IMG/VR virus record: IMGVR_UViG_3300037095_000059
DNA from: a virus
Reading direction: 5' to 3' (one strand)
Length of the DNA: 64,000 nucleotides
The number at the start of each line of letters is the position of its first letter. Position 1 is the first letter of the stretch. Below the pieces are notes generated by a model, which searched no databases, was not told the origin of the DNA, and saw nothing but the letters and a program-made list of their open reading frames with translations. Shown piece by piece: positions 5,093 to 62,918 of this stretch. The position numbers and the translations under genes are program-made.

Positions 5093-5322
5093 AACACGTC
5101 ATTGTGATTGAAACCTCGGACGACCGGCCCCTGAATAAGCGGACGCTGTGTCTATTCCGAGCGCAAGCTATCTGCGCCCTTCACGACCTGGCGACAAAGT
5201 ACGTGGGTTTGTCCTTCATTAACACGCGGTTCAACGTATCGTCCGCCACCGTCGCTATTCACGAAATGTACAATCTACCGCCCTGGAACCCGGAAACGGG
5301 AACCAGCGAGTCGTCCAGGTAA
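5089..5322 (+). CDS. hypothetical protein
   Basis: ORF-track ORF with ATGA overlap to the endonuclease gene. Its TAA stop lies inside the motif copy at 5313. Confidence 0.6.
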   Translation: MKHVIVIETSDDRPLNKRTLCLFRAQAICALHDLATKYVGLSFINTRFNVSSATVAIHEMYNLPPWNPETGTSESSR

Positions 5323-5327
5323 TGGAC
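5313..5327 (+). repeat. dispersed motif GTCCRRNTAATGGAC, exact
   Basis: gtccaggtaatggac. Its TAA is the stop of CDS 5089..5322. It lies 15 nt upstream of start 5343. Confidence 0.9.
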
Positions 5328-5342
5328 AGAAAGTGAGATGTT

Positions 5343-5633
5343 ATGGCACAGTGGCAGCGACACTTGGACATGAAGGACGTGTGGGACAGCGGAGACATTC
5401 CTCTTGTTGCCCGCACTGCGGCAGACCGTTTGGAGGTTTTGGCCCCCTTCGGCGGCAACTACCTGGACGACGAAAAGCTGGACCTCGTGGACGAACTACG
5501 CGCCCTAGCCGAAGACGAAGGAGCAACAACCAGCGACTTCGACAACGTGTGGGGCCGGGTTTACGATTGGGCCGACACGCCACTCGACTCCAGCTTCGGC
5601 GGAAAGAAAGTTTGTTGGGTTGCGACGTTCTAA
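5343..5633 (+). CDS. hypothetical acidic protein
   Basis: ORF-track ORF with plausible coding composition. The overlapping Arg-rich alternative frame 5333..5650 is rejected. Confidence 0.6.
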   Translation: MAQWQRHLDMKDVWDSGDIPLVARTAADRLEVLAPFGGNYLDDEKLDLVDELRALAEDEGATTSDFDNVWGRVYDWADTPLDSSFGGKKVCWVATF

Positions 5634-5640
5634 ACAACAA

Positions 5641-5655
5641 GTCCAGGTAATGGAC
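5641..5655 (+). repeat. dispersed motif, exact
   Basis: gtccaggtaatggac. It is intergenic and lies directly upstream of the 31-nt initiation cassette at 5659-5689. Confidence 0.9.
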
Positions 5656-5682
5656 AACCAACCAAAACCCGAAGGAGGGTTT

Positions 5683-5844
5683 ATGAAGCGATGGAAGATT
5701 GATTTCGGAGGCTCTGTAATCGTAGAGGCCGACGACCAATATGAAGCCGAAGCCTTGGCACGAGAGCGCGTTTCTTCTGACGGCGACTGGGCTGAACAGA
5801 GGCGGTGTCGGCAAATCAGCGGTTTTGACTACGAGGAGAACTAA
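5683..5844 (+). CDS. hypothetical protein
   Basis: GAAGGAGGG lies 5 nt before ATG 5683, in the frame of ORF 5620..5844. Confidence 0.55.
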   Translation: MKRWKIDFGGSVIVEADDQYEAEALARERVSSDGDWAEQRRCRQISGFDYEEN

Positions 5845-6060
5845 ATGGGCTTGCAAAACCTGATTACCTATTTCTACCCCGACCATTGGCGCACGAATGA
5901 CCTAGCCGTTGAAGTCAGGCTTCTGGGCAAGCGTGTAGGGTATATTCGTCAAGAACGGCTGCGCGATTTCAAGGACGAGATCGAGAATTTGGAAGATGTG
6001 GCCCGCCGCGCCGTCGATGCCCTTGAGTGTGCAATCGAAACCTTGTCCGAACAGGTCTAA
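5845..6060 (+). CDS. hypothetical protein
   Basis: ORF-track ORF starting 1 nt after the upstream stop. Confidence 0.55.
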   Translation: MGLQNLITYFYPDHWRTNDLAVEVRLLGKRVGYIRQERLRDFKDEIENLEDVARRAVDALECAIETLSEQV

Positions 6061-6082
6061 CCAAAGTTGGCGGAATAACCAT

Positions 6083-6097
6083 GTCCATTAGCCGGAC
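6083..6097 (-). repeat. dispersed motif, exact (reverse orientation)
   Basis: gtccattagccggac. It lies directly upstream of the second copy of the 31-nt initiation cassette (6099-6129). Confidence 0.9.
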
Positions 6098-6658: not shown

Positions 6659-7771
6659 ATGTCCAATTTAATCAAACGCGGAGCCTCTTACCACCTGGAC
6701 CTCACATCCGGGGGGAGAAGGCTTCGCTTCTCTCTGGGCACACGCCTCCCCCAGGCCGCTCGAACCCTGGCGCGTCAGATCGAGTGCGCTATCGCTGGCG
6801 GGCCCAAGGCAGAGGAGTGGGAAGTTTTGAAGCTGGTCCTGCCCCCCAAGAGCTTCGCAATCTTGGCCTCGGGCCGGGGTCTCACGGCGCAGCCAAACAT
6901 GGCAGAATTTGAAACCCTCTTTCAAGAAAAACTTGACCGGCGAGTGAAGCTCGGGGAGTTGGCGGAGAGCAGCCGGAACTTGTACCTGTGGGCGGCGGAC
7001 AGGTTCTTCTCCCGCATGGCTGAACTCAAAGTCCGGAAAATGGACGCCGTTACCCCGACTCTGGCCGAGGAGTATTTGATATTCAGGAAAGAAGCCACGT
7101 TGGCCAAAGGCGGCTCGGGGCGCGGGCTTGTGACCGAAACCACCGTACTCCAAGCTGTCTTCAACCTAGCCGTGGAAGAAGGACTCATCAAGAGCAGCCC
7201 CTTGCGGAACAAGTACAAACCAGATTCAGACCCCAAAGGCCCAGACCCATTTACACCGGAAGAGATCGCCAAACTCGACGCGGCGGCTACTGGACCAGAC
7301 AGACTGCCCTTCCTTTTGCTGAGATGGACCGGCCTGAGAGGATCAGACGCGGTGACGGTGCGCTGGTCGTCCATTAACTGGACAGACAGAAAGCTGCACG
7401 TTCAAACTAGGAAGAGAAAGACCTGGGTGGTTGTTCCGCTGTACGGCGAACTGTTGGAGACGTTGGAGGCTGTCTATCTTGGCCGCACCGGAACTGTATC
7501 GGGGGCAGACGACTCTCCCATTCTGTTCGGGCTCTCTCGCGCCAAGCTGTACAAACTCGTCGCTGACTTGGGCATCCGTGCCGGAGTCAAGAACTGCCAC
7601 CCCCACAAATTTCGGGCCTCCCTCGCCTGTACGCTACTCGAACGAGGAGCGACTCTATTCGACGTAGCCAAACTGCTCGGGGACTCACACGCGGTCGTTG
7701 AGAAATTTTACGCAGCAACAACAGACAAGCAGCAGGAACGAATCCGTGGTATAATGGAAAAGTCCGGGTAA
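6659..7771 (+). CDS. int: tyrosine recombinase / phage integrase
   Basis: WTGLRGSD (catalytic Arg) and HPHKFRASLACTLLERGATLFDVAKLLGDSHAVVEKFY (HxxR ... H ... Y). AAGGA precedes the ATG. Confidence 0.9.
   Translation: MSNLIKRGASYHLDLTSGGRRLRFSLGTRLPQAARTLARQIECAIAGGPKAEEWEVLKLVLPPKSFAILASGRGLTAQPNMAEFETLFQEKLDRRVKLGELAESSRNLYLWAADRFFSRMAELKVRKMDAVTPTLAEEYLIFRKEATLAKGGSGRGLVTETTVLQAVFNLAVEEGLIKSSPLRNKYKPDSDPKGPDPFTPEEIAKLDAAATGPDRLPFLLLRWTGLRGSDAVTVRWSSINWTDRKLHVQTRKRKTWVVVPLYGELLETLEAVYLGRTGTVSGADDSPILFGLSRAKLYKLVADLGIRAGVKNCHPHKFRASLACTLLERGATLFDVAKLLGDSHAVVEKFYAATTDKQQERIRGIMEKSG
7031..7045 (+). repeat. dispersed motif, 1-mismatch variant
   Basis: gtccggaaaatggac inside the integrase gene (codes VRKMD). 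Confidence 0.6.
7745..7755 (+). promoter_or_regulatory. extended -10 promoter element (cGTGGTATAAT)
   Basis: TGgTATAAT lies in the 3' end of int, 7 nt before the motif copy at 7762. No good -35 element. Confidence 0.35.
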
Positions 7772-7776
7772 TGGAC
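7762..7776 (+). repeat. dispersed motif, exact
   Basis: gtccgggtaatggac. Its TAA is the integrase stop. GAGGAGG and start 7791 follow. Confidence 0.9.
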
Positions 7777-8127: not shown

Positions 8128-8156
8128 TGGACAAAACTAGGAATGTGTGGTATAGT
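8128..8156 (+). promoter_or_regulatory. sigma70-type promoter with extended -10
   Basis: TGGACA, 17 nt, TGgTATAGT in an intergenic gap. The motif copy at 8175 falls at about +12 to +26. Confidence 0.5.
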
Positions 8157-8174: not shown

Positions 8175-8189
8175 GTCCATTACCTGGAC
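8175..8189 (-). repeat. dispersed motif, exact (reverse)
   Basis: gtccattacctggac between promoter 8128-8156 and the SD/start at 8201. Confidence 0.9.
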
Positions 8190-10197: not shown

Positions 10198-10304
10198 AGC
10201 TCAACATCGCTTTAGCTCTATTCGTGATCCTCGTCTTCGGGGCCGAGTTCTATCACCAGGCGCACACGCCGCCCCAAGCAGAAAATTGTGTTGTGTCCAG
10301 GTAA
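10194..10304 (+). CDS. small signal/TM peptide (36 aa), candidate
   Basis: ATGA overlap with the upstream stop. N-terminus MKLNIALALFVILVFGA. The TAA stop lies inside the motif variant at 10295. Confidence 0.35.
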   Translation: MKLNIALALFVILVFGAEFYHQAHTPPQAENCVVSR

Positions 10305-10309
10305 GGGAC
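10295..10309 (+). repeat. dispersed motif, 1-mismatch variant
   Basis: gtccaggtaagggac. GGAGG and ATG 10319 follow. Confidence 0.6.
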
Positions 10310-10318
10310 GGAGGACGT

Positions 10319-10771
10319 ATGCGGATTGTCTTTCTCGATTTCGACGGGCCGATTATCCCCTCACTCTCTTATCCTCCCTCTGGAAAACAAGCTAGGGCCT
10401 GGCCGCCCTGCGTCTCCGCTTTGAACCGGATCACAGAAGAGACAGGAGCCAAGATCGTGGTCAGCAGCGTGTGGCGGACTGACGGATTGATGAAGTGTCG
10501 AGAAAATCTCCACTCTTGGGGCGTAGTGGCTCCTGTGATTGGTGTGACCCCTCGTTTATATGAAGGGTATAATCAGCTTCCTCGGGGATTAGAAATCTCA
10601 AAGTGGTTGGAGGAATACGACCGAGAAGAGGTCGAGTCCTTTGTGATCCTGGATGATGACCACGACATGGAACATTTGCTGCCTTTCTTGGTTCACACGC
10701 CTTTTGAAACGGGCCTGACGGAAGAGCACGCCGACCTTGCAATCAAAATTCTAACAGGTGTGTCCAGGTAA
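10319..10771 (+). CDS. HAD-superfamily-like phosphatase
   Basis: The N-terminal MRIVFLDFDGPI matches the DxDx(T/G) motif I of HAD hydrolases. LDDD lies near the C-terminus. Confidence 0.6.
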   Translation: MRIVFLDFDGPIIPSLSYPPSGKQARAWPPCVSALNRITEETGAKIVVSSVWRTDGLMKCRENLHSWGVVAPVIGVTPRLYEGYNQLPRGLEISKWLEEYDREEVESFVILDDDHDMEHLLPFLVHTPFETGLTEEHADLAIKILTGVSR

Positions 10772-10776
10772 TGGAC
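10762..10776 (+). repeat. dispersed motif, exact
   Basis: gtccaggtaatggac. Its TAA is the stop of CDS 10319..10771. It lies upstream of the polymerase start at 10788. Confidence 0.9.
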
Positions 10777-10787: not shown

Positions 10788-13040
10788 ATGACCGACTTCC
10801 ACCTTGATTGGGAAACACGCGCAGTTCCTCCTCTTGACGAGGTGGGACTCGATGTGTATCTGGCACACCCCTCCGCCGAAATCATCATGGGTCAGTATGC
10901 TAGAGGCGACCGGGCGGTCACGGTATGGGAGCCTCACCTCCATCCACAAATCCCCGCCGAGTTAGAAGACGCGCTGCTCGACCCCTTCTGCATCATTCAC
11001 TCTTGGGGAGCTAACTTCGAAAGACAAGTATCCAAGTCGCTTCTGGGCATAGACAAGCCAGCGACTGAATGGGTTTGTACGATGTCCCATGCCAGATACG
11101 CCGGGGTTCCAGGAAAGCTGCATGAGGCGGGCGAGGTCTTGGGTCTCGGGGCCAAGGCCAAGCTGCGCCTCGGCGGGGGGAAAACCGGAAAGGGCGCGGC
11201 GCTCATTCGGTTGTTCTGCGAACCCGTGGACAAGGGCGGGAAAGAAACGTTGTTCGGCCTCTCCGGGCCTACTTTCAATACCCCCTACACCCACCCCAAA
11301 GAGTGGGAACAGTTTCGTGAATACGGAAAAATGGACGTGGAGGCAGAGAGAGCGGCGGGGAAGAAACTAGCACAGTTCCCCATGTCCGAAGAAGAATTGG
11401 AAACCTGGAGACTGGATAGCAAGATCAACGAAACCGGGTGGCCCACGGACTCGCTTCTAGTTCAAAATGCCAGGGAGATTGCTCTACGAGCCCGGGAGCC
11501 GTTGCTGGCCCGGCTCAAGGAAATAACCCAACTCGAAAACCCAAGTTCTCGTGACCAACTGATCGGTTGGGTGCAGGAAAACGGAGGGTATCTCTTCACG
11601 TCCTTGGGAAAAGACTTCATAGCCCGGGCCCTGGCCGGAGAGTGTGACCTGACACCAGAAGGCCGCGAAGTCTTGGAACTCCGCCTGCAAACCGCCAAGT
11701 CCTCTATCTCAAAGTACACGGCGCTCGCCGACATGACCGCCGAGGACGGACGCCTTCGCTATCAGTACACCTACTACGGGGCGCACACGGGCCGCTGGGC
11801 CGCGCACGGAGTCAATGTGGGCAACTTGTTGAAGCCCACCAAAGAAGTCGAGAAGAAGTTGGACCGGGCCATCAATCTTGTCCGGGAAATGGACTACGAA
11901 GGGATCGTCCGCGAGTTCGGAAAACCTTTGAACGTGGCTGCCGGGGTTCAGCGGTCGGCCTTCCGCGCACCCTCCGGATACAAATTCGTCGTGGCGGATT
12001 TGAACGCAATCGAAAATAGAGTGATCGGTTTTCTTGCTAGATGCCCGAGCATTCAGGGGGTGTTCACCAGTACCTTCACCTATCACGGACCCGACTACCC
12101 TGAAAAAGAAATCTTGGATGGGATGCAGTTTCCCTTAGACCCGTACATCCAATTTGCCACTAGAATGTACAACCAGAGCTACCACGATCTGTGGGTGGAA
12201 TGGAAGATCAAGGGAGATTCCAGCAAACGGACTTTCTGCAAACCCCCGGTTTTAGGTGGAGGATACGCCTTGGGCCCCGGGGATGAGTATGTGGATAAGG
12301 ACACTGGCCTGAAATACTGGACCGGCCTACAGGGGTACGCCCGCAACATGGGAATTGAACTCCCCGCTGAAGTGGCTGAGGAGTCCATTGCAGTTCTCAG
12401 AAAAGAGTGGATAGAAGTCACCTGGTTGTGGAAGGATATGGAGAGGGCGGCGGTTTTTGCTATCCGAAACCCGGGACACTTGACGGGGGTAGGGGTCCCG
12501 GAGCTACAGTGGGAAATCCAAAAATTCGAGAAACTCGGGCGCAAAGTTCTGCCCCCGGTGTTGTTCTTTAAGTGTCACTCGGACAAGGTGTTGGAGATGG
12601 TCCTTCCCTCCGGGAGACCTCTGTATTATTGGAGCCCCCGCGTAGAAGTCCAGCATAAAACATGGAATACGGGACAAATTGATCCGAGAACTCTCAAGCC
12701 CATCCTGCGCGAGTACGACCAGGACGTTATCCTCTACAAAGCCAAGAGCCAAAAGACAGGGCAGTGGGTAGAGAAGGACACGTTCGGCGGGCACCTGGTT
12801 GAAAATGGGACTCAGGGAGAAGCGAGAGACATCCTTGTGGACGGACTGAAAGAAGCCGACCGACTAGGTTTTGAAGTGGTCGGCCACACATACGATGAAG
12901 CGGTGACACTGGTTCGAATCAACTCAGGACTTGGAGTGAAAGAACTCTGCGCCTGCCTGTCCAAAGAACACCCGAGATACGGAGGACAGCTTCCCCTCGC
13001 TGCCGAAGGATTTGAAGACGAGGTCTACCGCAAGAATTAG
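10788..13040 (+). CDS. family A DNA polymerase with 3'-5' exonuclease domain
   Basis: DWETRA (Exo I), ADLNAIENRV (motif A), KPPVLGGGYALG (motif B), GHTYDEAV (motif C). 750 aa. Confidence 0.9.
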   Translation: MTDFHLDWETRAVPPLDEVGLDVYLAHPSAEIIMGQYARGDRAVTVWEPHLHPQIPAELEDALLDPFCIIHSWGANFERQVSKSLLGIDKPATEWVCTMSHARYAGVPGKLHEAGEVLGLGAKAKLRLGGGKTGKGAALIRLFCEPVDKGGKETLFGLSGPTFNTPYTHPKEWEQFREYGKMDVEAERAAGKKLAQFPMSEEELETWRLDSKINETGWPTDSLLVQNAREIALRAREPLLARLKEITQLENPSSRDQLIGWVQENGGYLFTSLGKDFIARALAGECDLTPEGREVLELRLQTAKSSISKYTALADMTAEDGRLRYQYTYYGAHTGRWAAHGVNVGNLLKPTKEVEKKLDRAINLVREMDYEGIVREFGKPLNVAAGVQRSAFRAPSGYKFVVADLNAIENRVIGFLARCPSIQGVFTSTFTYHGPDYPEKEILDGMQFPLDPYIQFATRMYNQSYHDLWVEWKIKGDSSKRTFCKPPVLGGGYALGPGDEYVDKDTGLKYWTGLQGYARNMGIELPAEVAEESIAVLRKEWIEVTWLWKDMERAAVFAIRNPGHLTGVGVPELQWEIQKFEKLGRKVLPPVLFFKCHSDKVLEMVLPSGRPLYYWSPRVEVQHKTWNTGQIDPRTLKPILREYDQDVILYKAKSQKTGQWVEKDTFGGHLVENGTQGEARDILVDGLKEADRLGFEVVGHTYDEAVTLVRINSGLGVKELCACLSKEHPRYGGQLPLAAEGFEDEVYRKN
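11880..11894 (+). repeat. dispersed motif, 1-mismatch variant
   Basis: gtccgggaaatggac inside the polymerase gene (codes VREMD). Confidence 0.6.
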
Positions 13041-13925: not shown

Positions 13926-13940
13926 GTCCGGATAATGGAC
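13926..13940 (+). repeat. dispersed motif, exact
   Basis: gtccggataatggac. It is intergenic. GGAGG and ATG 13958 follow. Confidence 0.9.
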
Positions 13941-15202: not shown

Positions 15203-15948
15203 ACCCACACGATCTGAATTGGGCGGTGCGTTTGCTGCCCGTCCGGCTTCGCAACCAAATGCTTGAGTACGGGCCGCGCCTGGTCCTGGGCGGAGGCTAC
15301 CTTCGGTCCACAGTCTCGGGGGAAAAACCCAACGACCTGGACTTGTTTACGCAGACAGCGGAAGACGCCAAGTTGTTTGCCGAGGCTCTGGCCAAAGAAG
15401 CAAAGAAGAAGACTTATGAAACAGGCAATGCTTTGTCCGTTAAGCTATCGCCCCGGCATTTTGTCCAATATATTCACCGTTGGTCGTTCCCAACCCCGGC
15501 GTACCTTTTGGAGTCCTTCGACTTCACTATCGCTTGTGCCGCAATTTGGTTCGAGTCCGGGAAATGGACAAGCCTGATCGACGACGAGTTCTACTCGGAC
15601 TTGGCGGCTAAACGATTGGTGTACCGTTCGCCCGACCGAAATGAAGACGCGGGTGGGAGTCTCCTTCGGGTCTTGAAGTTCTATCAGCGCGGATTTCGTA
15701 TACCCTTGGATTCCCTGGGGGCTGTCGTCGCCCGAATGGTTGACAGCGTAGACCTAAAAGGGATCGAGGTTATCGACACTGGAGCCTTCGTGGGAACATC
15801 CAGCATCGGGGACACAACTGAAAAGCGGTGGGCTTCTGTAATCACGGGCCTCCTGCGGGAAGTAGATCCCCAGGTTGATCCTGAACACTTCTCCCACTTG
15901 CCCAGCACGCCCGTCGAAGTCAAACCCGAGGAGGAAACCAATGGCTGA
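15190..15948 (+). CDS. Pol-beta-fold nucleotidyltransferase (CCA-adding / poly(A) polymerase head-domain-like)
   Basis: GTG 15190 follows GAGGAGGA. LGGGYLRSTVSGEKPNDLDLF resembles the GGxVRD...DxD nucleotidyltransferase motif. Confidence 0.55.
   Translation: MRELNPHDLNWAVRLLPVRLRNQMLEYGPRLVLGGGYLRSTVSGEKPNDLDLFTQTAEDAKLFAEALAKEAKKKTYETGNALSVKLSPRHFVQYIHRWSFPTPAYLLESFDFTIACAAIWFESGKWTSLIDDEFYSDLAAKRLVYRSPDRNEDAGGSLLRVLKFYQRGFRIPLDSLGAVVARMVDSVDLKGIEVIDTGAFVGTSSIGDTTEKRWASVITGLLREVDPQVDPEHFSHLPSTPVEVKPEEETNG
15555..15569 (+). repeat. dispersed motif, 1-mismatch variant
   Basis: gtccgggaaatggac inside the nucleotidyltransferase gene. Confidence 0.6.
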
Positions 15949-47800: not shown

Positions 47801-50800
47801 TGCTTCCGAAGCTATTTTGTCTAGGTCCGCTGTCGATAGGGTCGGTCCCTCATATATTCTTGTTTTAGACCCGTCAGATACCTTGATCTTCGTCTCCCCA
47901 ACCTTAGCCCCAAACTGTTTTCCAAGTTTGTTGGCAACCTGCGGGGTGATCTGATCGTAGTAGCTTTCGAATCCTTCCTTCCGGGGCATGCTCGCTCCGG
48001 TTGGCTCTGTCTGCATCCGATCCCAGAGTTTCTTGGTGACAGCGTCTACCTTCTCACGACCAGCAATATGCAGGACCCGGTGTACAATTGCTCTCAGGTC
48101 GGCTTGGGACTTTACTTGTCCTCCACTTTTGTTGAGCAATCCCCGGCGCGTAGCTTCGCCTTCTAGATCAACCCCTCCGGCATTTCCGCCGTGCTGATAT
48201 GTTCCAGCAACCGTCCATTTTCCGTCTTCGGTCTTTTCCCAATCGAAGCGTTCCGACCCCCACCGGTTGAAGTGTTCAACTCCCGGGGTCCACGAGATTC
48301 CATCATATCCGTTTTCGGCGGCGTATCGGATCATTCTCTTGAAGAATAATCCGGTCCATTCGTCTGTCTTCTTGAAGGGGGCGTCGGGGACTCCAGAATG
48401 GACAGTCTCTTTGCTGATTTCGTTCAGACGAGCCTGTAGCTCCGGATGAACGTCTCCGGCGTCCGGTCTTGTTGAGTGGGTCCGGTCGTATTCTCGGGGG
48501 TCTAGTTCTCCCGTTTCCGGGTCTATCGCATGAACCTTGACACTCCAAACACGATCCCATCCCTTTCCGTTGGGGTCTGCGGGATGGAAAGAGATTACCT
48601 TGTCTTTTCCTCCGTAGCTGTTTACAATATTTCCTGGCTTGAAGTAGTTCGCAAGTTCTTCGTCGGTTACCGGGTCCTTCAGTCTTTCGCGGAGATCGGA
48701 CGCTTCCTTACGGAGACTCTCAATTCTTGCTGGGTCGAGATTGTACCCCTGTGTCCTTCCTTTCTGGTGCCAATCAGATTGCAGTTCTTCCAGGTGCAGC
48801 AGCTTCTCGCCGTTGGGGCCTGTGCGGTCGTTGAAGCGGACATGGCCTACTACGTTGGGTTCGTCCCAGTGAGCGGAGCGGAAGTCCTCGTTATAATCGA
48901 ATACATTCTTCGATTGCCCGTAGTTTGGAAGCGTCATCAACAACTCTCGGTACGAACCTGGTTCTGCTCCGGGGAGGGTGTATGTGCCGAATTTGGCGGG
49001 GTCAAATTTTTCTCCGGCATCCCACCTGTTTACCGCACTATCAACGACCTCTCTTTGGTCTTCAGAAAGACCACCATAATCTCTTCCATAAAGCTGTCTG
49101 GAAATCCTATCCGGCGGGGGAGTGTTTTCCTGTTTCGTAACCTCTTGTACCTGCAAGTTATTCGCCGCCAGGTAGTCCTTGACTTCTTCCGGACGCACGG
49201 GGGCGCTTCCCTTCTCGCGGAGGAAGTCAGAGAGACCTGTGTATTTTAGCTCGTCCGGTTTTACGCCGTTGTTCTCCAGCATTTTGAGAACGGTGTCGGC
49301 GGGCATGGGTCCTTGCATCCGGCTATCAACTAGCTGGTTGGACTTCAAGTACCAGACGGGAGCGCGGTTATCCTTCTCTTTGGAAAACAGTCCATTATCC
49401 GGACCGAATTCTGTGTCAAATAATGAAGCTCCTGATTTCCGAGCAAGGTGTGAGGCTATCCGCGAGTCTCTGCGGGCGGCTTCGAGTCTACCAGCCGCGT
49501 TAAGAAGTTCAGGACTAGAGCCCGCAGCTTCTCCGGTGGAAGGTTTTCTTGGGACGTAGGTTTCGAGTTTTGTGTCGAGGGCATTGAGGTCTCCTCCAAG
49601 TTTCTTGATTACGCCCCTGATTTCGGGGTTGGTTTTGAGCATGTCCGCAAAGTCAGCAGAGTGTTGGGCCACAAGTTCGGGTGTTAGCAGTCCTTGCTTG
49701 ATAATTTCTTGCGGGGGTATCCAGCGGTCGTTCCCCCAACCAGACAGTTCGGCCAGAGATTTGATGAAGCACCAGATTGCGGCCTGCGCCTGGCGAGGCT
49801 CGACGCCCTCCGCCTTGGCCGCTTCGCGGACCTTGGCAGACATGGCGTCATAAACTGCTGGTTTGTTAATCCGATTCGGGTCGTGATCTCCGAAGACCGC
49901 CATCCAGGTGTCGTTTGTGACCCGGCTTGAATCCTTGCCCAGGTTCTTTGTGAAAGAAGATACCTTGGGGCCGGATAGAGGCTCTCCCTGTAAGGCGTGA
50001 ATAGCGTTGCCCATTCTTGCAGGCAGGTCTACGCCTTGTGTTTCTCCACGACCGGCGAGAACTCTGTAGAGAGAAGCGTTCTTGCTGGCGACCTTCCCGT
50101 CTTTCCAGGTTACGTCCTGGGGGCGGCCCGCCTTGTCCCACTTGGCCCAGAGGTTGAGGGCCATGCGCAGGTTGGCTTGAACCGGCTGAACCGGGGATAG
50201 AGCGGCGGTAAAGTTCAGGAACTTGTCTTTGTCCGCTTTCCCCAGCCACGGAATTCCAGAGTCGATCAGAGCGTCGAAGGCCCGGGTCGATCTTTCATAC
50301 CACAACTGTCCGGCTTTGCCCGCACGAATAGCAGCCGTCCACTCTTCGTGGTCGGGCATGGAGTTGAAGGCGGCGGTGAGCAGGTTCTGCTTTTCGGGTG
50401 TGTCGTGCTTCTGAACTTCCTCTGGGGTAAGGTGGGACTTGATGTCTTCCCACTCTGCGGGTTTTTCTCGGGAAGCCAGTCCGGATAATGGACTGATTGG
50501 TTCTCCGCGAAGAGCAGCTTTTTGAACGGCTTCCCCGCCTTGGTATGAGTCTACCCGTACCCCTTGTCCGGGTTCGTAAGGTCCTTTGTACGTTGGGTCA
50601 TACGCCATGAACACAACGTCGGGATGGCCACCGTTGTACTGCTTCATTTTGTCGTAGTTCCAACCTTCGGGGGCATATGCGTCATTCCACGGAAGACGAG
50701 CCACGACCTTCATTCCCTCCCGAGCGTTTATTGCCGGAAGGTAGGTATCGAATCCGTCGGACCGACGCCCTCCATTTTCAATAGCAACGCGCATCAAATT

Positions 50801-53800
50801 GGCATTAGCTCTTGGGGTATCAGTAGGATGAGAGAACTTCGACACAATAAGGTCTCCATCCAGAGCGATTCCGGTCTTTCCGTCCGGGCTCATAAAGGTT
50901 TTCATTCCTTTATACTCTTCTGGAGAGTAGACAGAAAGCTGCTGATCCGCTCCGGAGGACTCGTGCGCTTTCTTGACTTGGGAAATAGCAGAGTGGAACT
51001 TCTCCGCCGACGTTGGCACTATGCCATAGTCACGGAAAACTTTGACAGGTTCGAAGGATTTGACTACGTTTTGGGCTCTGTACCCGGAGAAGCCTTTTTG
51101 CTGAAGCAGCTTTTCGAGGTTATATTCAATCGGATCGCCATTTTTGCGAGTTAATTTGCGGGCCTGGTCTACAAGACTGAGCGGGTCTTTCGCCCTGTCG
51201 TAGATTTTGTTGTAGTCAAGGTTCGCAAAATACTTCTTGGAGTTTCCCTGGACAGCGGGTTCTCTGTAGGATTCTTCTCCGAAGTACGTTCCTGGAACCT
51301 GTAAACGATCCCGTTCGGCCCCGCGCACACCTGTTCCTGCCAACTCCGGGTTGGTTTCCGTGAAGTCTGGTTTTCTGCTCCAATGGTAGACGCGGCGAAG
51401 GTCCTTGTTTTCGTCCAGTTCCCGGACGCGGGAAGCTAGACCTTGCTGTTTTCCTTTAGTAGGCTCAAATCGAACTTCAGCCTGAGTGCCCTCAGATTCT
51501 GCTGCTTTGGTAGCTTCTTCGTGGGTTGGGAAAGAATCTAGGAGATGGCCTTCCCCGTCGTAGACGTACCATTCTCCTTCAGCACCTTGGCCAGCCCCGC
51601 CTTCCCCTCCTTCTTCCAGGCGTCGTACACTTCCAGCGCCCGTTCCTTGCTCGGCCAACCCACTTGCTCTTGCTTCTGCTGCTTGTCTTTCGGCATAAAT
51701 GTCCTCCACGTGTTGTCTTGCAATTTCGTTGATGCGGGCAAATTTCTCCCGCGCTTGGGGTCCGTGCTTGGCTTCAAGTTCCTTGAAATACTCATCTAGG
51801 AAATTGATTCTCTCTGTTTTTGATGCGCCCGTGTCCACGCCCGCCTGATATTTAGCAGCGGTCTCGGCCACACGAACAACCGGGTTTTGGTCATAATCCA
51901 GCGAATCAAAATATGAATGAGTCACTGTTGGTATTATACCATGTAAACGGTCCCAGGGGGAACCCGGTTCCACTTTAATTTCTCCGCTTGGAAGCCTTGT
52001 GGCCCCGTCTAGGAGGTTGTATACCTCCCCGTTTTGGGAGAGCCATCTTTGCTCGGCGTGTTGAGCTTCTTCTTGTGCAACTAGAATTGAAAACTCAGGA
52101 TTCTCCCCCGGGGTTTTGAGGACAGATGTAGGTCCGGCGAGTTGACGGGCCTTGGAAATCAACTGTCCGATTGAACTCTCTGGATTGAAACGACTTAGGA
52201 GGATGTCCGCTTCCCTCGGAGAGTAGTTTACGCCCGTGCCCGGAGCTTGAGCAATCGTTTGAAAGTCGCCGTAATCTTCTGGACTGAGCCAAACAACAGG
52301 CCGACCATCTGAGCCTACACGCACTTCTCCCGAAGAGGTAGTAGCAACGGACTTGGTTCCTGCTCTCGGCGGGGCTTCGTTGTCGGCTAGAGGGGTTCCC
52401 AGCGGGGCCGGTATGGGCTGGTACTCTCCACCACCTTGGGCTTCAACCAAAACGTTATGTAGTACCCGCGCCTTTTCCGGGTCGGTTTCTGTCGCTATAC
52501 GGGTTTGGCATTCGGCGAGGCGCTCGGTATTGAAGGCTTTATCCTCTTTGGACAAACCGAGAACTGGGTGTGCTTTTCGGAGACCTAGCAGGTCGAAGGC
52601 TGTGTTGTACTTGTTGACAGCGTCCTGCTCAGCGACCGCGTGGGCGGCCTCCCTGTCCTTGTTGACTCTCTCTATTGCCAACCAGCGGTCGGACAGCCTG
52701 GGAACGTCTGTGGAGCCTAGCAGGGGGTTAAACAACTCGCCCGCCGAGCGCAAAGCGTGCGGGGCCCCCAAAGCTCCCATAGCCCCGGAGGCGAACATTT
52801 CTGTTCCATATTCCCAAGCGTGATCGGCGTCCCCTTCTTTCAGGGCGTCGAAGAACCGGGGCGACATCTGAGCCGCTGTTTCCAACTGTTGGTAGGTGAA
52901 TCCCCAGTTCATCACAGTGTTCGCCGTGTCGGCGGCCTTGGTCAGGGCCCCAAAAGACACATCGGGCGCTGCTTTGTGCAGAATCTGGAAGGCTCCTCTT
53001 TGGAGAAGGTTTCCTCCCAGAAGGTCCTTGGTCACGTCCAGTTTTTTATCGGACAGTATGGCAGTTGCTTTTTTCCAATTGTCTACGTTGTACCCGGCGT
53101 CACGAACCGCGTCAGCCAGGGGGAGGAAACCGGACTTGGCTTTGGCTACCGTATCGCCCGTATCCGACAGAGCCTTCAGTTCGTCGGTGGAAAACCCGGG
53201 CATCTTTGTGTTCGCCGTGGCGATAGCAGACCTTTCCGCTTCGGAAAGTGTTCCTTCCTTTAGGGCAGTCCTCTGTGCTTCGCTCAAGCCTACTTCAGAC
53301 AGGTTCTTCTGAAGTTCTTCCGAGGCTAGTTCTGCGTCCCTGTTGATGGGGAAGGTTAGAGCCCGGGCTCGTTCCAACAAACCCAGGTCGTGTCCGCCCG
53401 CTTTCAGGGCACCAGAGATGACCGGCTCAATATCGGGCATACTCTTGGCGGTCTTCAGCGCGATTTTTGACGCACTTATGGCGTCGGCGATCTGAGCGGC
53501 GGTAAATTCCCCAGACTCTTTGAGCGCAGTTTCGCCCGCTCCGGCGATAAATCCTCCGGAGCCGAAAGTTGCGGCAGCTAGAGCCAGCGAAAGTGGACTC
53601 GTGAGACCCGCCGCGATGTGCTCCACACCGCGCCCAAACCCGCCCATTCCCAAATCTTCGGGAAGACCAAAGACAGAGGAGTCGAGCAGGGGGGTGTTCG
53701 CCCAATCCCAAGCGCGAGAGTACCAGCTTTGACTTGGGTCTTGGTACAAGTGCTGAGGAGGAGTGGCGGGGCCAACAGATTGTTGTCCATTACCCGGACT

Positions 53801-55789: not shown

Positions 55790-56184
55790 TATTTGTTCTC
55801 CAAGAAGTAGCTAAGTGGTGTGGTCCGGGAAATGGACGTGTCTTTCAGGGCCCTCTTCAGGAACTTCAAAATCTGATCTTGTCCAAGTTTTTCATTGAAT
55901 CCCAAGACCCTCATAAGGTTTTCGAGTTTGTCGTCCTTTTTAATACCGGCGCGAGACTCCCCTTTGATCTTGATCTCCAGGTCAAAGCAAGAAGCACGAT
56001 ACCCGGCGAGCCACGACGTAAACAACCTCATGCCTTTTTCATCTATCGAGTTTTTGCCCGGGCGACTGAAGTTCAAGACTCCAATTGGATTACGAGCCTG
56101 GTAGAGGTCTCCATCGGGGTTTGTGGTTGCCCCTTTGAGGTGCGCCAAAGCATCAACTAGGGCTTCTACGCGATTAACGGACAT
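55789..56184 (-). CDS. hypothetical virion-module protein
   Basis: ORF-track ORF. Its stop overlaps the downstream start. Confidence 0.6.
   Translation of the reverse strand: MSVNRVEALVDALAHLKGATTNPDGDLYQARNPIGVLNFSRPGKNSIDEKGMRLFTSWLAGYRASCFDLEIKIKGESRAGIKKDDKLENLMRVLGFNEKLGQDQILKFLKRALKDTSISRTTPLSYFLENK
55823..55837 (+). repeat. dispersed motif, 1-mismatch variant
   Basis: gtccgggaaatggac inside the - strand CDS 55789..56184. Confidence 0.6.
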
Positions 56185-56238: not shown

Positions 56239-56952
56239 CTATCCTCCCGACATCACTTTAGCGGCCCCGCCCATAGCTCCGGTAGCCAGACCCATGATGT
56301 TGTTCATCTCTTCTTGGTTGGCAGCCTGAACGGCGTTGGCCTCGGAGTTGGCGGAGTTGCTCATGCCCGTGGCGGCGTTGGCCATACCCGTAGCGTTTTG
56401 CTGACCGGCCACACTTAGTTCTCCGGATAAGGCGTTGTTGTAGTTCTGATAGCCTTGGTTGTAGCTGGCTTGCAGGTTTTGGGTCAGGCCGGATTGGGTT
56501 TCGTTTGCGGCGGCGGTTGCGAGGGTGGCCGCTTGCTGCGAAGCTACGCCGGAGGGCAGCATGGAGTTTCCTCCACCTTGGGCGGCTTGGTTTTCTTGCA
56601 GAGTCTTTTTCGCCGAGGCGTACTGCTGTCCAGTATTCTGAATCACCGAGGAGTTCAGGGTGTTCATTTCCTGCGTGTTGTAGCCCTGCTGGTTCGAACC
56701 CGCAGCGATTACAGAAGCGAACGTCGTGTTCAAAGACCCCAGGATGCTTTGGTTCGCCGCAAACTGTGTGTTTACGTCGTCAAGATAAGTCTTTTGCGCG
56801 GCAAGCTCGGCGTCCTGAGCTTGTGTTTGGGCTGCCGAAGCACCTTTCAGGAGAGCAAAGGGGCCCGTCCGGGTAATGGACTTTTCATAGAGCAGGATAT
56901 AGCGGGATTGGCGCTCGCTCCAAACATAGACTGCTTTTGTAGTGACCTTCAT
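56239..56952 (-). CDS. Gln/Asn/Ala/Gly-rich virion-module protein
   Basis: ORF-track ORF with a low-complexity Q/N/A/G-rich body, as in scaffold or internal proteins. Confidence 0.65.
   Translation of the reverse strand: MKVTTKAVYVWSERQSRYILLYEKSITRTGPFALLKGASAAQTQAQDAELAAQKTYLDDVNTQFAANQSILGSLNTTFASVIAAGSNQQGYNTQEMNTLNSSVIQNTGQQYASAKKTLQENQAAQGGGNSMLPSGVASQQAATLATAAANETQSGLTQNLQASYNQGYQNYNNALSGELSVAGQQNATGMANAATGMSNSANSEANAVQAANQEEMNNIMGLATGAMGGAAKVMSGG
56867..56881 (+). repeat. dispersed motif, exact
   Basis: gtccgggtaatggac inside the - strand CDS 56239..56952 (ITRTGP). Confidence 0.9.
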
Positions 56953-57764: not shown

Positions 57765-58133
57765 CTACGGCATCCTTGAGAGTAAGATGTTGATGCTGTC
57801 GCTTAAACGAGAAAACCCGTCTCGTAGGTCTTCTCGCAAGCCGTATAAAGCGTCGTTGGTCTTGTCCAGCTTATCGTTGGTCTTTTCCTGCTCGGCTTGA
57901 ATGTGCGCTAAATGGTTGTCTTTGATTTGGACAAGGTCGCCGCTGGCGGTATCAAGCTTATCCCCGTATTTTTCAAACTTACGGGCGACAGAATACAGCC
58001 GCTGAAGAAATAGCAGGAGCGCAGCCCAGCCCGCAACATACTGCCAGTTTTGAGAGAGCCACACACCGGGGTTCCAAGGAGAATTAAACATTTGTCGGCC
58101 TAAAGCAAGGGATGAGTCTCTAACGTAGTCCAT
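57765..58133 (-). CDS. protein with N-terminal TM segment and coiled coil
   Basis: The start codon is the ATG of the motif copy at 58128. WQYVAGWAALLLFL is a TM-like segment. Confidence 0.55.
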   Translation of the reverse strand: MDYVRDSSLALGRQMFNSPWNPGVWLSQNWQYVAGWAALLLFLQRLYSVARKFEKYGDKLDTASGDLVQIKDNHLAHIQAEQEKTNDKLDKTNDALYGLREDLRDGFSRLSDSINILLSRMP

Positions 58134-58142
58134 TATCCGGAC
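58128..58142 (-). repeat. dispersed motif, exact (forward relative to - strand genes)
   Basis: The - strand reads TAGTCCGGATAATGGAC. TAG is the stop of CDS 58142..58645. ATG is the start of CDS 57765..58133. Confidence 0.9.
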
Positions 58143-61600: not shown

Positions 61601-61701
61601 CTTTGAGTTACGATACCGTCATAGAAGGAGTTGTTCCAGAGAACTCCGAACTTCGGCGGGCGGCTAGGCTGTGATCCCTTTTTCGCTAACTCGTTTGGCA
61701 C
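58645..61701 (-). CDS. large tail / host-recognition structural protein (1,018 aa)
   Basis: GTG start. Thr/Gly/Ser/Trp-rich, beta-rich sequence typical of tail or baseplate proteins. No motif copy inside. Confidence 0.7.
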   Translation of the reverse strand: MPNELAKKGSQPSRPPKFGVLWNNSFYDGIVTQRNPLRSNAAHIEAEFYGERTECLIDGLNTEISTKLTLVRRPGSSPYQTGTPDTFPAVDRWYSWHLFNSNTEKIKVLADTANAVYDVPPAGSGNASPTPVFTKSAGAGKSSFLSVGNTLYFSDGVDVQKIVGSLLSWTASTSYDQGNFIVDSNGYLQVVIGSQTATITNISIGSGTATLFFDPSTQLSIPVGTKLYLTGLTSVPALNGTTQTVTSVVNGQQVQFASALTQSTRAETGTATTGTGVSGAGPSQPTWATTFGAITQDGGAQWENAGLQTENWGIATPVSAPLVTQAPAPLSSSWAQNTWYAPSFVIEVTVGSNLYLFQLTSAGTTGTSAPTWDTHTGHVTIDNHGSPATPAQWTCLGTPAWVAATPYTVGDVIEALIFYYITVPQTVTTWIPANGSIPGHYSYTTVNVQQLVSAEGVFQCTVAGTTGTSAPQWTNGLGTTVTETTGVSWTNRGASSSTWPGASQNLSLATQILDSNGNLQQVQAFGETGAGAVPTGGWSTTTGAYTYDNTQTWLNTGPYTAANTGAWIYAFSYVNTLTDTVSTSDPQSAPIVVSAGNLAVVQGLGSADPQVNEIYIWRTVQGGSTLFYLDEIPNPGGGKTWIYTDTTADTNLDELIEAPVDNSNDPPPVGISALVYHLGRIWGAVNTSVYFSAGPDALVGSGNEAWPPANVFVFPDTVIRMFPTTSGLYVFTTADIYLIQGLGTSSSSFFSTPFMTGIGLSSYDAFAVNGSIVFLYSSDNQILTLDPSSGLSEIGFPIGDQFPTSTFTALQTQLTWHVSGSADKGLYVSDYADTWWRMCPTPSPETGTVWSPKAQIVSGFSAVQSVETSSGVHALLIGPPAAGGPILKRDSAVYEDDGAPYPAWAILGSLVLAQPGQTAHTAFFTTDSVKVGTPLTLAVQLDEIAPVSSGYFEPLTVYTTDPPQLSPSLSVEAQRFWLSQTEEPALCRHLQVQVNFGSDVVKNELLSLSLFGDWEQEL

Positions 61702-61717
61702 TAGAAGTCTCCGAAAA

Positions 61718-61732
61718 GTCCATTATCTGGAC
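61718..61732 (-). repeat. dispersed motif, exact (forward relative to - strand genes)
   Basis: gtccattatctggac. It is intergenic, 17 nt upstream of the - strand GTG start at 61701. Confidence 0.9.
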
Positions 61733-61741
61733 AGAAAAGTG

Positions 61742-61771
61742 TTGACAAAACTTGGGCGGGTGTGGTACAGT
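61742..61771 (+). promoter_or_regulatory. antisense sigma70-type promoter with extended -10
   Basis: TTGACA, 18 nt, TGTGGTACAGT on the + strand in the gap between two - strand structural genes. It points into the 3' end of CDS 61800..62894. Confidence 0.5.
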
Positions 61772-61799
61772 AATCTTGGAGGACTTATCTTGAGAAGTA

Positions 61800-62894
61800 T
61801 CAGAAACCTACGCCCGGACAAGGTCCATAAGGCCAAGCCGCCCCAATGTTTTGAGGAGCGTTCATCGCCCCATAGCCGCCGCCCATCAGGCTCTGCTCCG
61901 GTGTGAATCTGAAATCTTCTTGTTGACGATCTGCGGCGCGGAGGGCTTTTTGAAGAGTTTCGAGCCATTCGCCGTACATCTGCATTCCTTGTTGTAGATT
62001 GTTTTCTCTATAGAGGGCCGCCCGAACTCCAGCACGAAACAAATAAGACAGCTCAGCGGGAAGCGGCCAGATTGTCTGCTGCAAGGTATATAGTACGGGA
62101 GGCCGTACCTGGTATTGTACAACTGCCCACCACTCCAGCCCATTCAACGCGGGAACGGGGCTCATTCTCAAGCACATCCCCAACGGATCGGCGACGGTCC
62201 ACACAACCGTCCCATCCTGAATCATGGTCCCGGGCGTTGCGTTTGGGGGAGCGAAGGGTTGTGTGCTTCCCGAAATTCCATAGGGATAAAATCCGGGTGG
62301 GGTTAGGGTAGTTCCTGTGTAGCCGGGGGACTCGATGTTCAGCCCCAGATTGGTGGAGTCGATGTACAGGATGTTCCCGTTTATGTCCATGAATTGCTGA
62401 ATGGGCGACCGGGGAAGTTGAGCCTGGCCATACCCGCAGCTATACGCAGTATTAGCCTGCCACAAGCCGAGAGAAGCAAGAGAATTGGGAATGAAGGAGA
62501 TATTGAAGGGAACCGTCTGCGCGGCTGTCCAAGTCAAATCCCGGACAGTCTCCATCTCACGAATTGGCTTCGGCGCTCCGTTGTTGTTGGATGTGGAGTT
62601 GTTGATGTCCACGACCCAAGCGTTTTCCAGCCAGCCTATGTCGGTAACTTGCGTGCAATAGTCCTGCTGTAAGCTCACGGTCAGAAATGGGGGAATGATT
62701 TTCCGGTTCCACTTCCAAGGCATGTTTTCTGCCAGAATCCGCGAAAGCACTTCATTGCAAATGGAAAGGAAAGGTTCTGTGGTGTAACCAGGAGCGCCGC
62801 CCAAGACGCTATAGAAATCCGGATTCGCCTTCATCTGCATAACGATGGTTTGCAACGTCGGGCTTGTGCTCTGGCTTCCTGACAATACTGTCAT
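61800..62894 (-). CDS. virion structural protein (364 aa)
   Basis: ORF-track ORF. GGAGA SD with the motif just upstream. No function assigned. Confidence 0.7.
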   Translation of the reverse strand: MTVLSGSQSTSPTLQTIVMQMKANPDFYSVLGGAPGYTTEPFLSICNEVLSRILAENMPWKWNRKIIPPFLTVSLQQDYCTQVTDIGWLENAWVVDINNSTSNNNGAPKPIREMETVRDLTWTAAQTVPFNISFIPNSLASLGLWQANTAYSCGYGQAQLPRSPIQQFMDINGNILYIDSTNLGLNIESPGYTGTTLTPPGFYPYGISGSTQPFAPPNATPGTMIQDGTVVWTVADPLGMCLRMSPVPALNGLEWWAVVQYQVRPPVLYTLQQTIWPLPAELSYLFRAGVRAALYRENNLQQGMQMYGEWLETLQKALRAADRQQEDFRFTPEQSLMGGGYGAMNAPQNIGAAWPYGPCPGVGF

Positions 62895-62903
62895 ACTATC
62901 TCC

Positions 62904-62918
62904 GTCCGGTTAATGGAC
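62904..62918 (+). repeat. dispersed motif, exact
   Basis: gtccggttaatggac. It is intergenic. On the - strand it directly precedes the GGAGA SD of CDS 61800..62894. Confidence 0.9.

Follow-up and report, generated by a model that had tools for sequence, protein, structure and literature searches.

The 64,000-nt stretch of the IMG/VR virus record IMGVR_UViG_3300037095_000059 (hereafter the window) resembles phage DNA in which the first ~44.2 kb carries its genes on the + strand and the rest on the − strand, and it is dotted with copies of one 15-bp word, GTCCRRNTAATGGAC. Recognizable genes include those for a PAPS-reductase-like protein, a pentapeptide-repeat protein, a GIY-YIG endonuclease, several HNH endonucleases and an integrase-like recombinase (6659-7771); for the replication and recombination proteins family A DNA polymerase, clamp loader, sliding clamp, RecT, SSB and T7-type primase-helicase; and for a UvrD-like helicase, a PD-(D/E)XK nuclease, an ECF-like sigma factor, endonuclease VII and an exonuclease. 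An open reading frame (ORF) of 3043 codons (44825-53956, −) matches only DUF7178; internally it contains four exact copies of the word and one with two mismatches. The same phage is found on Joint Genome Institute (JGI) metagenome contigs of 55-62 kb, and the contigs of its relatives reach 104-110 kb. No close relative among GenBank phages emerged from megablast with 9-kb and 20-kb queries; the nearest cultured phage is the acidobacterial podovirus Tunturi_3, with 31% identity in one structural protein (PMC11924767). The word is a real, strongly selected, clade-wide cis-element.

Anatomy and conservation of a dispersed 15-bp word

Exact matches to GTCCRRNTAATGGAC number 37, with 21 on the + strand and 16 on the − strand, and 100 dinucleotide-preserving shuffles contain none. 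The initial annotation, which had called the enrichment enormous, is borne out by this control; its forward count was also right, but it had one reverse copy too few (15). Allowing up to one mismatch gives 49 copies, including 12 one-mismatch forms rather than the ten first reported, and the variant GTCCGGGAAATGGAC does occur three times (11880, 15555 and 55823). Up to two mismatches give 53 matches at 52 positions, since 40233 scores on both strands, compared with 1.3 expected and at most 4 in any shuffle. The first and last exact copies delimit the range 5313-62918, as originally described. Exact copies are on average 1.6 kb apart, or 1.23 kb when one-mismatch forms are counted, in place of the ~1.4 kb first estimated. 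Four “looser copies” had also been listed: 34452 has a single mismatch and 17002 has two, and those at 3243 (GTCCGGTTAATGCGG) and 29081 (GTCCGAATAGTGGCA) have three each. The copy at 3243 belongs to a Twister-P5 ribozyme (3221-3280, +; full-length match, 46.9 bits; gathering score 37.6) located in the gap that separates ORF 3011-3220 from ORF 3274-3582, and it looks like the 15-mer because the ribozyme stem CCGGAC...GTCCGG, followed by UAAUGC, resembles it.

How is the site built? When the 37 copies are aligned together with their flanks, the limits fall sharply at exactly 15 bp: the flanks carry no information, except that the preceding base is almost never G and the following base almost never C. 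Within the word, 11 positions never vary, either purine occurs at position 5, 35 of the 37 copies have G at position 6, and position 7 is unconstrained; by arithmetic from the alignment counts, this amounts to ~25 bits. As the initial annotation stated, the arms (GTCC and GGAC, 4 bp each) are palindromic, the 7-bp core is asymmetric, and copies lie on both gene arms. The commonest departure from the consensus is T8 to A (AAAT). No further conserved flank or second promoter element adjoining the word was found, and the half-sites GTCCGG and ATGGAC are not enriched after masking of the full sites. A literature full-text query with the sequence string returned unrelated primer matches only.

The sense word can also fold as RNA, with a 5-bp stem (including an R-U pair, position 5 being A or G and facing U11) and a 5-nt GNUAA loop, at −6 to −7 kcal/mol and a z-score of −3.6 to −4.6; the DNA folding energy is −3 to −4 kcal/mol for the sense strand and −2 for the antisense strand. 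The fold is consistent with an RNA element, that is, a sense hairpin at the 5′ end of primary transcripts and before ribosome-binding sites that would stabilize mRNA or bind a regulator or antiterminator. The stem, however, does not covary: every RRNTAAT core with complementary 4-bp arms in the window (37 of 37) has GTCC/GGAC, with no compensatory variant, and conserved one-mismatch forms break the stem without compensation (e.g., TTCC...GGAC).

Searching IMG/VR with a single version of the word revealed many uncultivated-phage contigs with 0.3-1.3 copies per kb, and these contigs encode orthologues of window proteins at 45-90% identity. The sites themselves are conserved in these related phages. 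Between flanking anchors, the site is retained in 44 of 59 comparisons, for which the identity of flanking proteins is ~44-95% and nucleotide identity averages 52%. For sites inside ORFs, 25 of 47 orthologue comparisons keep the site at exactly the same codons, including cases where the proteins are just 50-70% identical. Exact copies occur in both orientations, and some of either kind are kept in orthologues (e.g., 34012, in 3/6), which therefore fits duplex DNA rather than a single transcript. The densest region is the accessory small-gene region of relative L036, with 19 copies in 14.4 kb, or 1.3 per kb.

The word is specific to the phage lineage, and its version shifts with lineage. The window clade, along with L190, L192 and L193, has the form GTCC-RRN-W-AAT-GGAC. 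A sister lineage, L189 (IMG/VR 3300037067_010289; primase 45% identical), instead has the 14-bp near-palindrome GTCCGGWWCCGGAC, for example at 3381, 5798, 7162, 8855 and 18672, mostly in ORFs and including the SSB tail linker; its arm centres are 10 bp apart, compared with 11 bp in the window word. The word was not found in L191 (primase 40% identical). Could it be the site of a host protein, such as a nucleoid-associated protein or global regulator, or a host uptake-sequence, Chi or REP (repetitive extragenic palindromic) word copied by phages? Invariance over many divergent phages is what a conserved host reader would produce, and the word presumably fits the loose 15-bp Fis-type pattern GNNYRNNWNNYRNNC. 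In one genome per species from 185,579 species, however, the matches listed (L064-L183) are single copies per bacterial locus, at the level of chance (about 1,100 in 596 Gb, by arithmetic), and show none of the high density in bacterial chromosomes that marks host words. Sister phage lineages have another version or none, and the first 50 kb of the 97.6-kb Tunturi_3 genome contain neither the word nor any other repeated word. A host origin is thus very improbable.

Placement at gene junctions, within genes and at promoters

Although only 3% of the window is non-coding, a gap or gene end is touched by 19 of the 37 exact sites (P about 1e-14). Of the 29 gaps beyond 5.3 kb that measure 10 bp or more, 17 contain a site. 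At these junctions the word shares letters with translation signals. In the sense orientation, its TAA ends the upstream gene at five sites (5313, 5641, 7762, 10762 and 29587), its TAATG is a combined stop and start at two (24272 and 39854), and its first G finishes a TAG stop at three (22443, 42178 and 44036). A ribosome-binding site lies 0-8 nt after the word at junction sites of either orientation. The remaining sites are inside ORFs, in both orientations and in every stop-avoiding frame; where the reading frame would turn TAA into a stop, the word takes its AAAT form, which is conserved (15555). The left 5.3 kb, with the PAPS-reductase-like, pentapeptide and GIY-YIG genes, has no exact copies, and the orthologous stretch of L036 has them. 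Orientation is biased, with 35 sites in the window pointing with transcription and 17 against it. The family figures are 137 and 67 in non-redundant contexts, with A/T skew as the proxy for the coding strand, because long ORFs are too ambiguous in G+C-rich DNA, and with orthologous sites counted more than once.

The word is also coupled to predicted promoters. Extended −10 boxes of the TGGTATAAT type are enriched (16 vs 4.7 expected), and the word stands in two fixed positions relative to such boxes. In placement I, it begins 6-9 nt past a TGnTAnAAT box (eight non-redundant cases in the window and its relatives, including 7762 of the window); in placement II, it begins 29-31 nt upstream of the end of the box (four probably orthologous cases, including 30755 of the window). 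Permutation gives expectations of 0.10 and 0.07, respectively, with a maximum of 2 in 3,000 trials, and all 12 promoter-linked copies are co-oriented with the promoter. Judged from the predicted promoter sequences, placement I would cover the start point (+1..+15) and placement II would span the −35/spacer region, at about −36..−22. The fixed promoter positions, together with the concentration at gene junctions, therefore suggest a role in transcription. There are also strong sigma-70-like or extended −10 boxes with no adjoining word, at 13053-13080 (TTGACA-16-TATACT with an upstream TG), 17682-17690 and 51933-51941 (−).

These same placements also favor the RNA hairpin described above. The word starts at the predicted transcript start, 6-9 nt past the −10 box, at eight promoters, and a ribosome-binding site follows it by 0-8 nt at both kinds of junction site; an RNA role would explain both equally well. 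The orientation bias is 2:1 toward the sense strand, and within ORFs retention is higher for sense than for antisense copies (19/24 vs 6/23; Fisher P = 0.0004, with comparisons that are phylogenetically non-independent). As the carrier of a twister ribozyme, the phage does process RNA. Nevertheless, one copy in three is antisense and still exact, and some of these are conserved, although their RNA has another loop and a weaker stem of −4.6 kcal/mol. Moreover, ribosomes would unfold the many copies inside ORFs, and placement II is upstream of the promoter and hence outside that transcript. An RNA element is unlikely on balance, while retaining a real share of the probability.

Spacing is more even than chance (coefficient of variation 0.62-0.65 vs 0.96-0.97 simulated, P 0.0001-0.002). 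Is the word then a signal for replication, recombination or a nuclease, read on DNA? The T7-like primase-helicase could prime or load at the word (both strands start with 5′-GTC); alternatively, the word could be a Chi-like phage “self” signal for the UvrD-like helicase and PD-(D/E)XK nuclease, or a set of T5-type programmed nick sites. The interval of ~1.2-1.6 kb is near the scale of Okazaki fragments, both strands carry the word with a 2:1 bias, like that of Chi relative to replication, and sites are kept within essential ORFs. The word carries enough information (~25 bits) for a host genome to lack it by chance, and it could mark self; it co-varies with phage lineage, and the phage has its own primase-helicase, clamp, clamp loader, RecT, helicase and nucleases. 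In addition, 12% of homology-block ends fall within 20 nt of sites, compared with 3.4% expected, although this excess is partly trivial, the sites being at gene junctions and themselves conserved islands. Fixed, orientation-specific placement at promoters is not expected of such signals, and no switch of orientation along the window marks an origin. Known primase and Chi words are 3-8 nt long, far from 15 nt. The clamp-adjoining HNH gene (35990-36400) is a poor candidate for a nickase because relatives have other HNH types in its place. A signal of this kind is therefore rather doubtful.

There are signs that the word has changed in place. Two core inversions with unchanged flanks were found, one between 5641 and 6083 and the other between 53785 and its L017 orthologue. 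The first involves a duplicated intergenic module (5641-5682 and 6083-6122) that consists of the word plus 22 nt, including the ribosome-binding site, with the 7-bp core inverted. Such flips would fit a self-propagating or recombination-linker sequence, serving mainly as a joint for shuffling gene cassettes, that spreads by insertion either way, by inversion in place, or by gene conversion after cleavage by a homing-type endonuclease or tyrosine recombinase. Sites inside ORFs coincide with small insertions (in the primase zinc ribbon and the 242-residue protein), and the cassette at 13085-13924 is located elsewhere in L036, flanked by sites. The enrichment of homology-block ends, the density peak in the L036 accessory region, and the presence of GIY-YIG, several HNH and integrase-like genes point the same way. 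To our knowledge, however, every tyrosine-recombinase core site is far larger than a 15-bp site with 4-bp arms: those of lox, dif and attC have arms of about 9-13 bp around an asymmetric spacer of 6-8 bp, so the 7-bp core would fit as a spacer, whereas 4-bp arms are too short and the flanks are uninformative. Position and orientation are mostly stable, with one flip in about 45 comparisons, and even spacing and fixed promoter geometry imply functional selection rather than drive alone. Self-propagation as the main explanation is improbable.

Readings and candidate readers of the word

How does the word compare with known dispersed sites? The closest analogy, already drawn in the initial annotation, is with Cluster A mycobacteriophages, in which an L5 gp71-type repressor has operators and dispersed sites whose orientation strictly follows transcription (PMC9283540). 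As in Cluster A, dozens of copies of one short asymmetric word are spread genome-wide (37 exact and 12 one-mismatch copies in 64 kb, where the Cluster A criterion is >20), they lie on predicted promoters and in short intergenic spaces (17/29 gaps here), promoter copies follow transcription, and related phages share the word. Unlike in Cluster A, the arms are palindromic, suggesting a dimer in place of the Cluster A monomer with its helix-turn-helix and second DNA-binding domain; the orientation of the copies as a whole agrees with transcription only 2:1; nearly half of the copies are in ORFs and are kept at orthologous codons; Pfam and PHROGs searches give no repressor homologue, and there is no evidence of lysogeny, the state in which the Cluster A sites silence lytic genes; and the sequence is unrelated. 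The system works like a Cluster A operator/stoperator network but is not a member of that group, and the stoperator analogy holds for junction and promoter placement but fails for strict orientation; neither a repressor homologue nor a sign of integrated prophage copies was found. A second parallel is the C1 repressor of phage P1, which has 22 dispersed operators with an asymmetric 17-bp consensus (PMC8546580). Here too, one asymmetric regulator word is dispersed over a phage chromosome of ~100 kb; P1 has a tyrosine recombinase and lives as a plasmid, and plasmid life would fit the lack of integrated copies for the present phage. P1 operators are at the promoters of separate operons and are not known to occupy most gene junctions or ORF interiors. 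The density here is ~4 times higher, and no relatives of C1, Coi or Lxc were detected.

Other systems share some features. Sites of the KorB/ParB type (RK2 OB sites, Noc sites) are dispersed, palindromic, and read by a helix-turn-helix protein that acts at a distance. The likeness is a (near-)palindromic word of 13-16 bp at promoters, far from promoters and inside genes, and one protein of the window, of 242 residues, has ParB, Spo0J and Noc DNA-binding domains as its weak best fold matches. That match, however, is not significant (E 0.5), and neither the ParB N-terminal CTPase domain nor ParA is seen in the window; moreover, the window-clade word is symmetric in its 4-bp arms only, L189 has a near-palindrome, and L191 has the protein but no word. 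The lambdoid boxB is a 15-nt hairpin with a 5-bp stem and a GNRNA-type pentaloop, present in two nut sites, all sense and accompanied by boxA. The present word has the same size, a 5-bp stem and a purine-rich pentaloop, its hairpin would lie near the transcript 5′ end, and in the sublineage L188/L190 the loop is GAAAA, as in lambda nutL. Unlike boxB, it has ~50 copies, a third of them antisense, no stem covariation, conserved variants that break the stem, and no conserved flanking element; no N-like protein was recognized, arginine-rich peptides not having been searched for. Chi, DNA uptake sequences (DUS/USS) and FtsK-orienting polar sequences (KOPS) are words of 5-12 nt in cellular genomes, read by translocating or uptake machines. 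They are likewise over-represented, dispersed over coding and non-coding DNA in both orientations with a bias, and lineage-specific, in contrast to the 15-bp, phage-restricted word with its fixed promoter positions. Promoter repeats of a phage RNA polymerase or sigma factor (T7-type, T4-late-type) do not account for mixed orientation, copies inside ORFs, or a word beside separate −10 boxes, and a ribosome-binding site 0-8 nt after the word leaves no leader. For boxB, Chi/DUS words, phage promoter repeats and recombinase core sites alike, a defining feature was tested and did not hold. The 3043-residue protein was considered as a virion RNA polymerase with hairpin promoters and rejected, since Pfam and PHROGs show no RNA-polymerase or other signature and PDB no sequence match.

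The reading favored here, tentatively and at somewhat less than an even chance, is that the copies are duplex-DNA sites of a lineage-specific dimeric (winged) helix-turn-helix protein and serve as operators and stoperator-like punctuation. Inverted half-sites one helical turn apart are the geometry of a dimeric helix-turn-helix operator. This geometry, the palindromic L189 version and the keeping of both orientations therefore point to duplex recognition by such a protein. From the observed anatomy, placement, conservation, promoter coupling and lineage specificity of the sites, we infer a bound protein, whose effect may be repression and for which candidates are given below. Two recognition helices would read the inverted GTCC/GGAC half-sites, one helical turn apart, and the A/T-rich asymmetric center may be recognized through DNA shape or a wing. 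The site would act as an operator at some promoters, on the start point (+1..+15) or over the −35/spacer. The other copies would punctuate operons between genes and at intervals within long genes, as roadblocks or as points of RNA polymerase reloading or contact, as stoperators do.

Two weak candidate readers may be put forward (candidates A and B, Table 1). Candidate A, 65-92% identical across most of the motif clade and with a site directly upstream, has fold matches to MecI, SmtB/ArsR, Fur and plasmid-initiator proteins (probability 0.9-1.0). Candidate B is the 242-residue protein with the ParB-like matches; its AlphaFold model has a mean predicted local distance difference test (pLDDT) score of 84, and its matches are to PDB structures. 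Its locus is conserved (clamp, 242-residue ORF, HNH, sigma factor), and its family forms ~300 clusters at 50% identity and has no Pfam match, even among 46 distant members; family profile searches gave only a borderline PUR-alpha match and repeat-driven TPR artefacts. The phage sigma factor (36401-36919) was rejected as a reader, the word being too short for a −35 plus a −10 and standing beside separate −10 boxes.

Several points weigh against the favored reading. For candidate A, the Foldseek match is weak (E about 0.03), and L193 has the motif but a different gene at this locus. For candidate B, the fold matches are also weak (E 0.5-9), and L191 has an orthologue but no motif. No repressor family was found in any tested ORF with Pfam or PHROGs, the small proteins having been concatenated for Pfam with glycine-serine (GS) linkers that produced spurious “Serglycin” matches and probably lowered sensitivity. 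Homologues of two phage proteins are found only on contigs of up to 110 kb, with none in the 0.2-1 Mb or larger classes, and there is no sign of lysogeny. Close to half of the sites fall within ORFs, one of them in the primase zinc ribbon, which with the even spacing suggests a chromosome-wide function beyond what promoters explain. Finally, the word is invariant across relatives with ~50% protein identity, beyond what is usual for immunity repressors. The even spacing, the conservation in essential ORFs, the deep invariance, and the coincidence with the transcript start and ribosome-binding site are all left unexplained by this reading and give the rival readings above their weight.

Another proposal is itself a minority prospect: the word may be a chromosome-wide “self” punctuation read on DNA every ~1-1.5 kb by a conserved core machine in place of an immunity repressor. 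The machine could be a factor that travels with RNA polymerase or reloads onto it, as at ops or Q sites, or it could be a phage helicase-nuclease or primase. If so, the code would link transcription to replication or shield phage DNA, and selection for it would have the strength to impose the word on essential proteins, such as the primase (in its zinc ribbon) and the 3043-residue virion protein, and to flip it in place.

What would follow if a single protein, such as the favored dimer, reads ~50 identical sites per 64 kb? This would be a second, independent case of one-word whole-genome regulation, in a phage group that is unrelated to mycobacteriophages and probably infects soil bacteria, and with differing rules: palindromic arms, tolerance of both orientations, and conservation within genes. 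The 15-mer is a simple sequence marker for a large uncultivated phage clade (contigs to ~110 kb), and its placements supply predicted promoters and operators for immediate use. The constraint that the sites place on protein sequences (SPDNG, VRIMD) also makes them a case of DNA-level selection overriding coding constraints.

Site coordinates and further features of the window

Table 1. Coordinates of the word, neighboring promoter boxes and candidate readers in the window. SD, Shine-Dalgarno sequence; L numbers are relatives.
Feature	Position	Strand	Context
Candidate reader A	29612..30013	+	133 residues, core predicted winged helix-turn-helix
Candidate reader B	35287..36015	+	242 residues, no Pfam match
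Extended −10 box TGGTATAAT	7747..7755	+	site 7762 begins 6 nt later
Extended −10-like box TGGTATAGT	8148..8156	+	18 nt upstream of site 8175
Extended −10 box TGGTATAAT	30775..30783	+	upstream of primase-helicase operon
Exact site	5313..5327	+	gene junction; TAA = stop of ORF 5089-5322
Exact site	5641..5655	+	gene junction; TAA = stop of ORF 5333-5650; right flank repeated at 6083
Exact site	6083..6097	-	gap 6061-6122, before start 6123; 22-nt right flank as at 5641, core flipped
Exact site	7369..7383	-	inside integrase-like ORF 6659-7771, antisense; not kept in orthologues
Exact site	7762..7776	+	TAA = integrase ORF stop; predicted +1..+15 of 7747 promoter (placement I); SD next
Exact site	8175..8189	-	gap 8120-8200; directly 5′ of SD and start 8201
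Exact site	10762..10776	+	TAA = stop of ORF 10073-10771; DNA polymerase start 11 nt on
Exact site	13926..13940	+	gap following ORF 13085-13924
Exact site	18175..18189	-	directly 5′ of RecT SD and start (18201); kept in L040
Exact site	19117..19131	+	inside RecT ORF, frame 1 (SPDNG); kept in L040
Exact site	20695..20709	-	gap 20685-20720; directly 5′ of SD and start 20721
Exact site	22443..22457	+	first G ends TAG stop of ORF 22183-22443; then SD
Exact site	24272..24286	+	TAATG = stop of ORF 24084-24281 and start of ORF 24281-25132
Exact site	25804..25818	-	inside ORF 25552-25986, antisense; kept in L002
Exact site	25957..25971	+	3′ end of ORF 25552-25986, before start 25983; kept in L057
Exact site	27602..27616	+	inside PD-(D/E)XK nuclease ORF, frame 0 (VRIMD); same codons in 4/5 orthologues, one mismatch in the fifth
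Exact site	29587..29601	+	TAA = stop of ORF 29090-29596; directly 5′ of predicted winged-helix gene 29612-30013
Exact site	31609..31623	-	in primase zinc ribbon, antisense; also in L053
Exact site	31911..31925	-	inside primase-helicase ORF, antisense; one-mismatch forms nearby in orthologues
Exact site	34012..34026	-	inside sliding-clamp ORF, antisense; kept in 3/6 orthologues
Exact site	35704..35718	+	inside 242-residue ORF (VRIMD), variable insert; kept in 5/6 orthologues
Exact site	36083..36097	+	inside HNH ORF; kept in 3/4 orthologues
Exact site	37249..37263	+	inside ORF 36921-37319, frame 1 (SPDNG)
Exact site	38431..38445	-	3′ end of endonuclease VII ORF; directly 5′ of SD and start 38456
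Exact site	39854..39868	+	TAATG = stop of ORF 39690-39863 and start of ORF 39863-40048
Exact site	42178..42192	+	first G ends TAG stop of ORF 41522-42178; then SD
Exact site	43162..43176	-	gap, 5 nt upstream of start 43182
Exact site	44036..44050	+	first G ends TAG stop of last + arm ORF
Exact site	44802..44816	+	just past stop of 3043-residue ORF (−), antisense
Exact site	47551..47565	-	inside 3043-residue ORF (SPDNG); kept in both orthologues
Exact site	49390..49404	-	inside 3043-residue ORF (GPDNG); kept in both orthologues
Exact site	50479..50493	+	inside 3043-residue ORF, antisense (SPLSG)
Exact site	53785..53799	-	inside 3043-residue ORF; kept in L009, present but flipped in L017
Exact site	56867..56881	+	inside ORF 56239-56952 (−), antisense; kept in L038
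Exact site	58128..58142	-	junction of ORFs 58142-58645 and 57765-58133
Exact site	61718..61732	-	gap 61702-61799; before SD and start of 1018-residue ORF
Exact site	62904..62918	+	gap 62895-62988; directly before SD and start 62894 (−)
One-mismatch site (TAGT)	3654..3668	+	inside ORF 3579-3818; exact in L036 orthologue
One-mismatch site (AAAT)	7031..7045	+	inside integrase ORF; same variant in L021, L036
One-mismatch site (TAAG)	10295..10309	+	inside ORF 10073-10771
One-mismatch site (AAAT)	11880..11894	+	mid DNA polymerase ORF; kept in L021, L036; exact in L055
One-mismatch site (AAAT)	15555..15569	+	inside ORF, frame where TAA = stop; same variant in 3/4 orthologues
One-mismatch site	26425..26439	-	inside ORF 26170-26625
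One-mismatch site (AAAT)	29189..29203	+	inside ORF 29090-29596
One-mismatch site (TAGT)	30570..30584	+	inside ORF 30117-30746; same variant in L030
One-mismatch site (GGAT)	30755..30769	+	predicted about −36..−22 of 30775 promoter (placement II); arrangement kept in L192, L193, L005
One-mismatch site, decayed	34452..34466	+	clamp ORF; exact here in 5/6 orthologues
One-mismatch site (TACT)	40233..40247	+	inside exonuclease ORF
One-mismatch site (AAAT)	55823..55837	+	inside ORF 55789-56184 (−)

The window has further features of its own. A G+C-rich hairpin at 44140-44168 (GGCCCTCC GTTTT GGAGGGCC) lies exactly at the convergence of the two gene arms and is probably a two-way terminator. The UvrD-like helicase is apparently split into ORFs 22705-23736 and 24281-25132, with a free-standing HNH ORF (23774-24055) between them; it is a single ORF in L189 and L191. 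A 559-bp segment (25921-26479), which includes the site at 25957, is 100% identical to the otherwise dissimilar IMG/VR contig L027, suggesting a very recent exchange of a small cassette. Long in-frame tandem repeats are present at 2047-2274, 6422-6625 and 13478-13721, with periods of 15, 18/24 and 12 bp, respectively, and the first of these encodes the pentapeptide-repeat protein. Avoidance of 6-bp palindromes is extreme: 24 of the 64 are absent, compared with only 7 of 4032 non-palindromic hexamers, and the total is 330 where 811 are expected (e.g., CCGCGG, 0 vs 26 expected; CGGCCG, 0 vs 23 expected). This looks like a strong restriction-avoidance signature.

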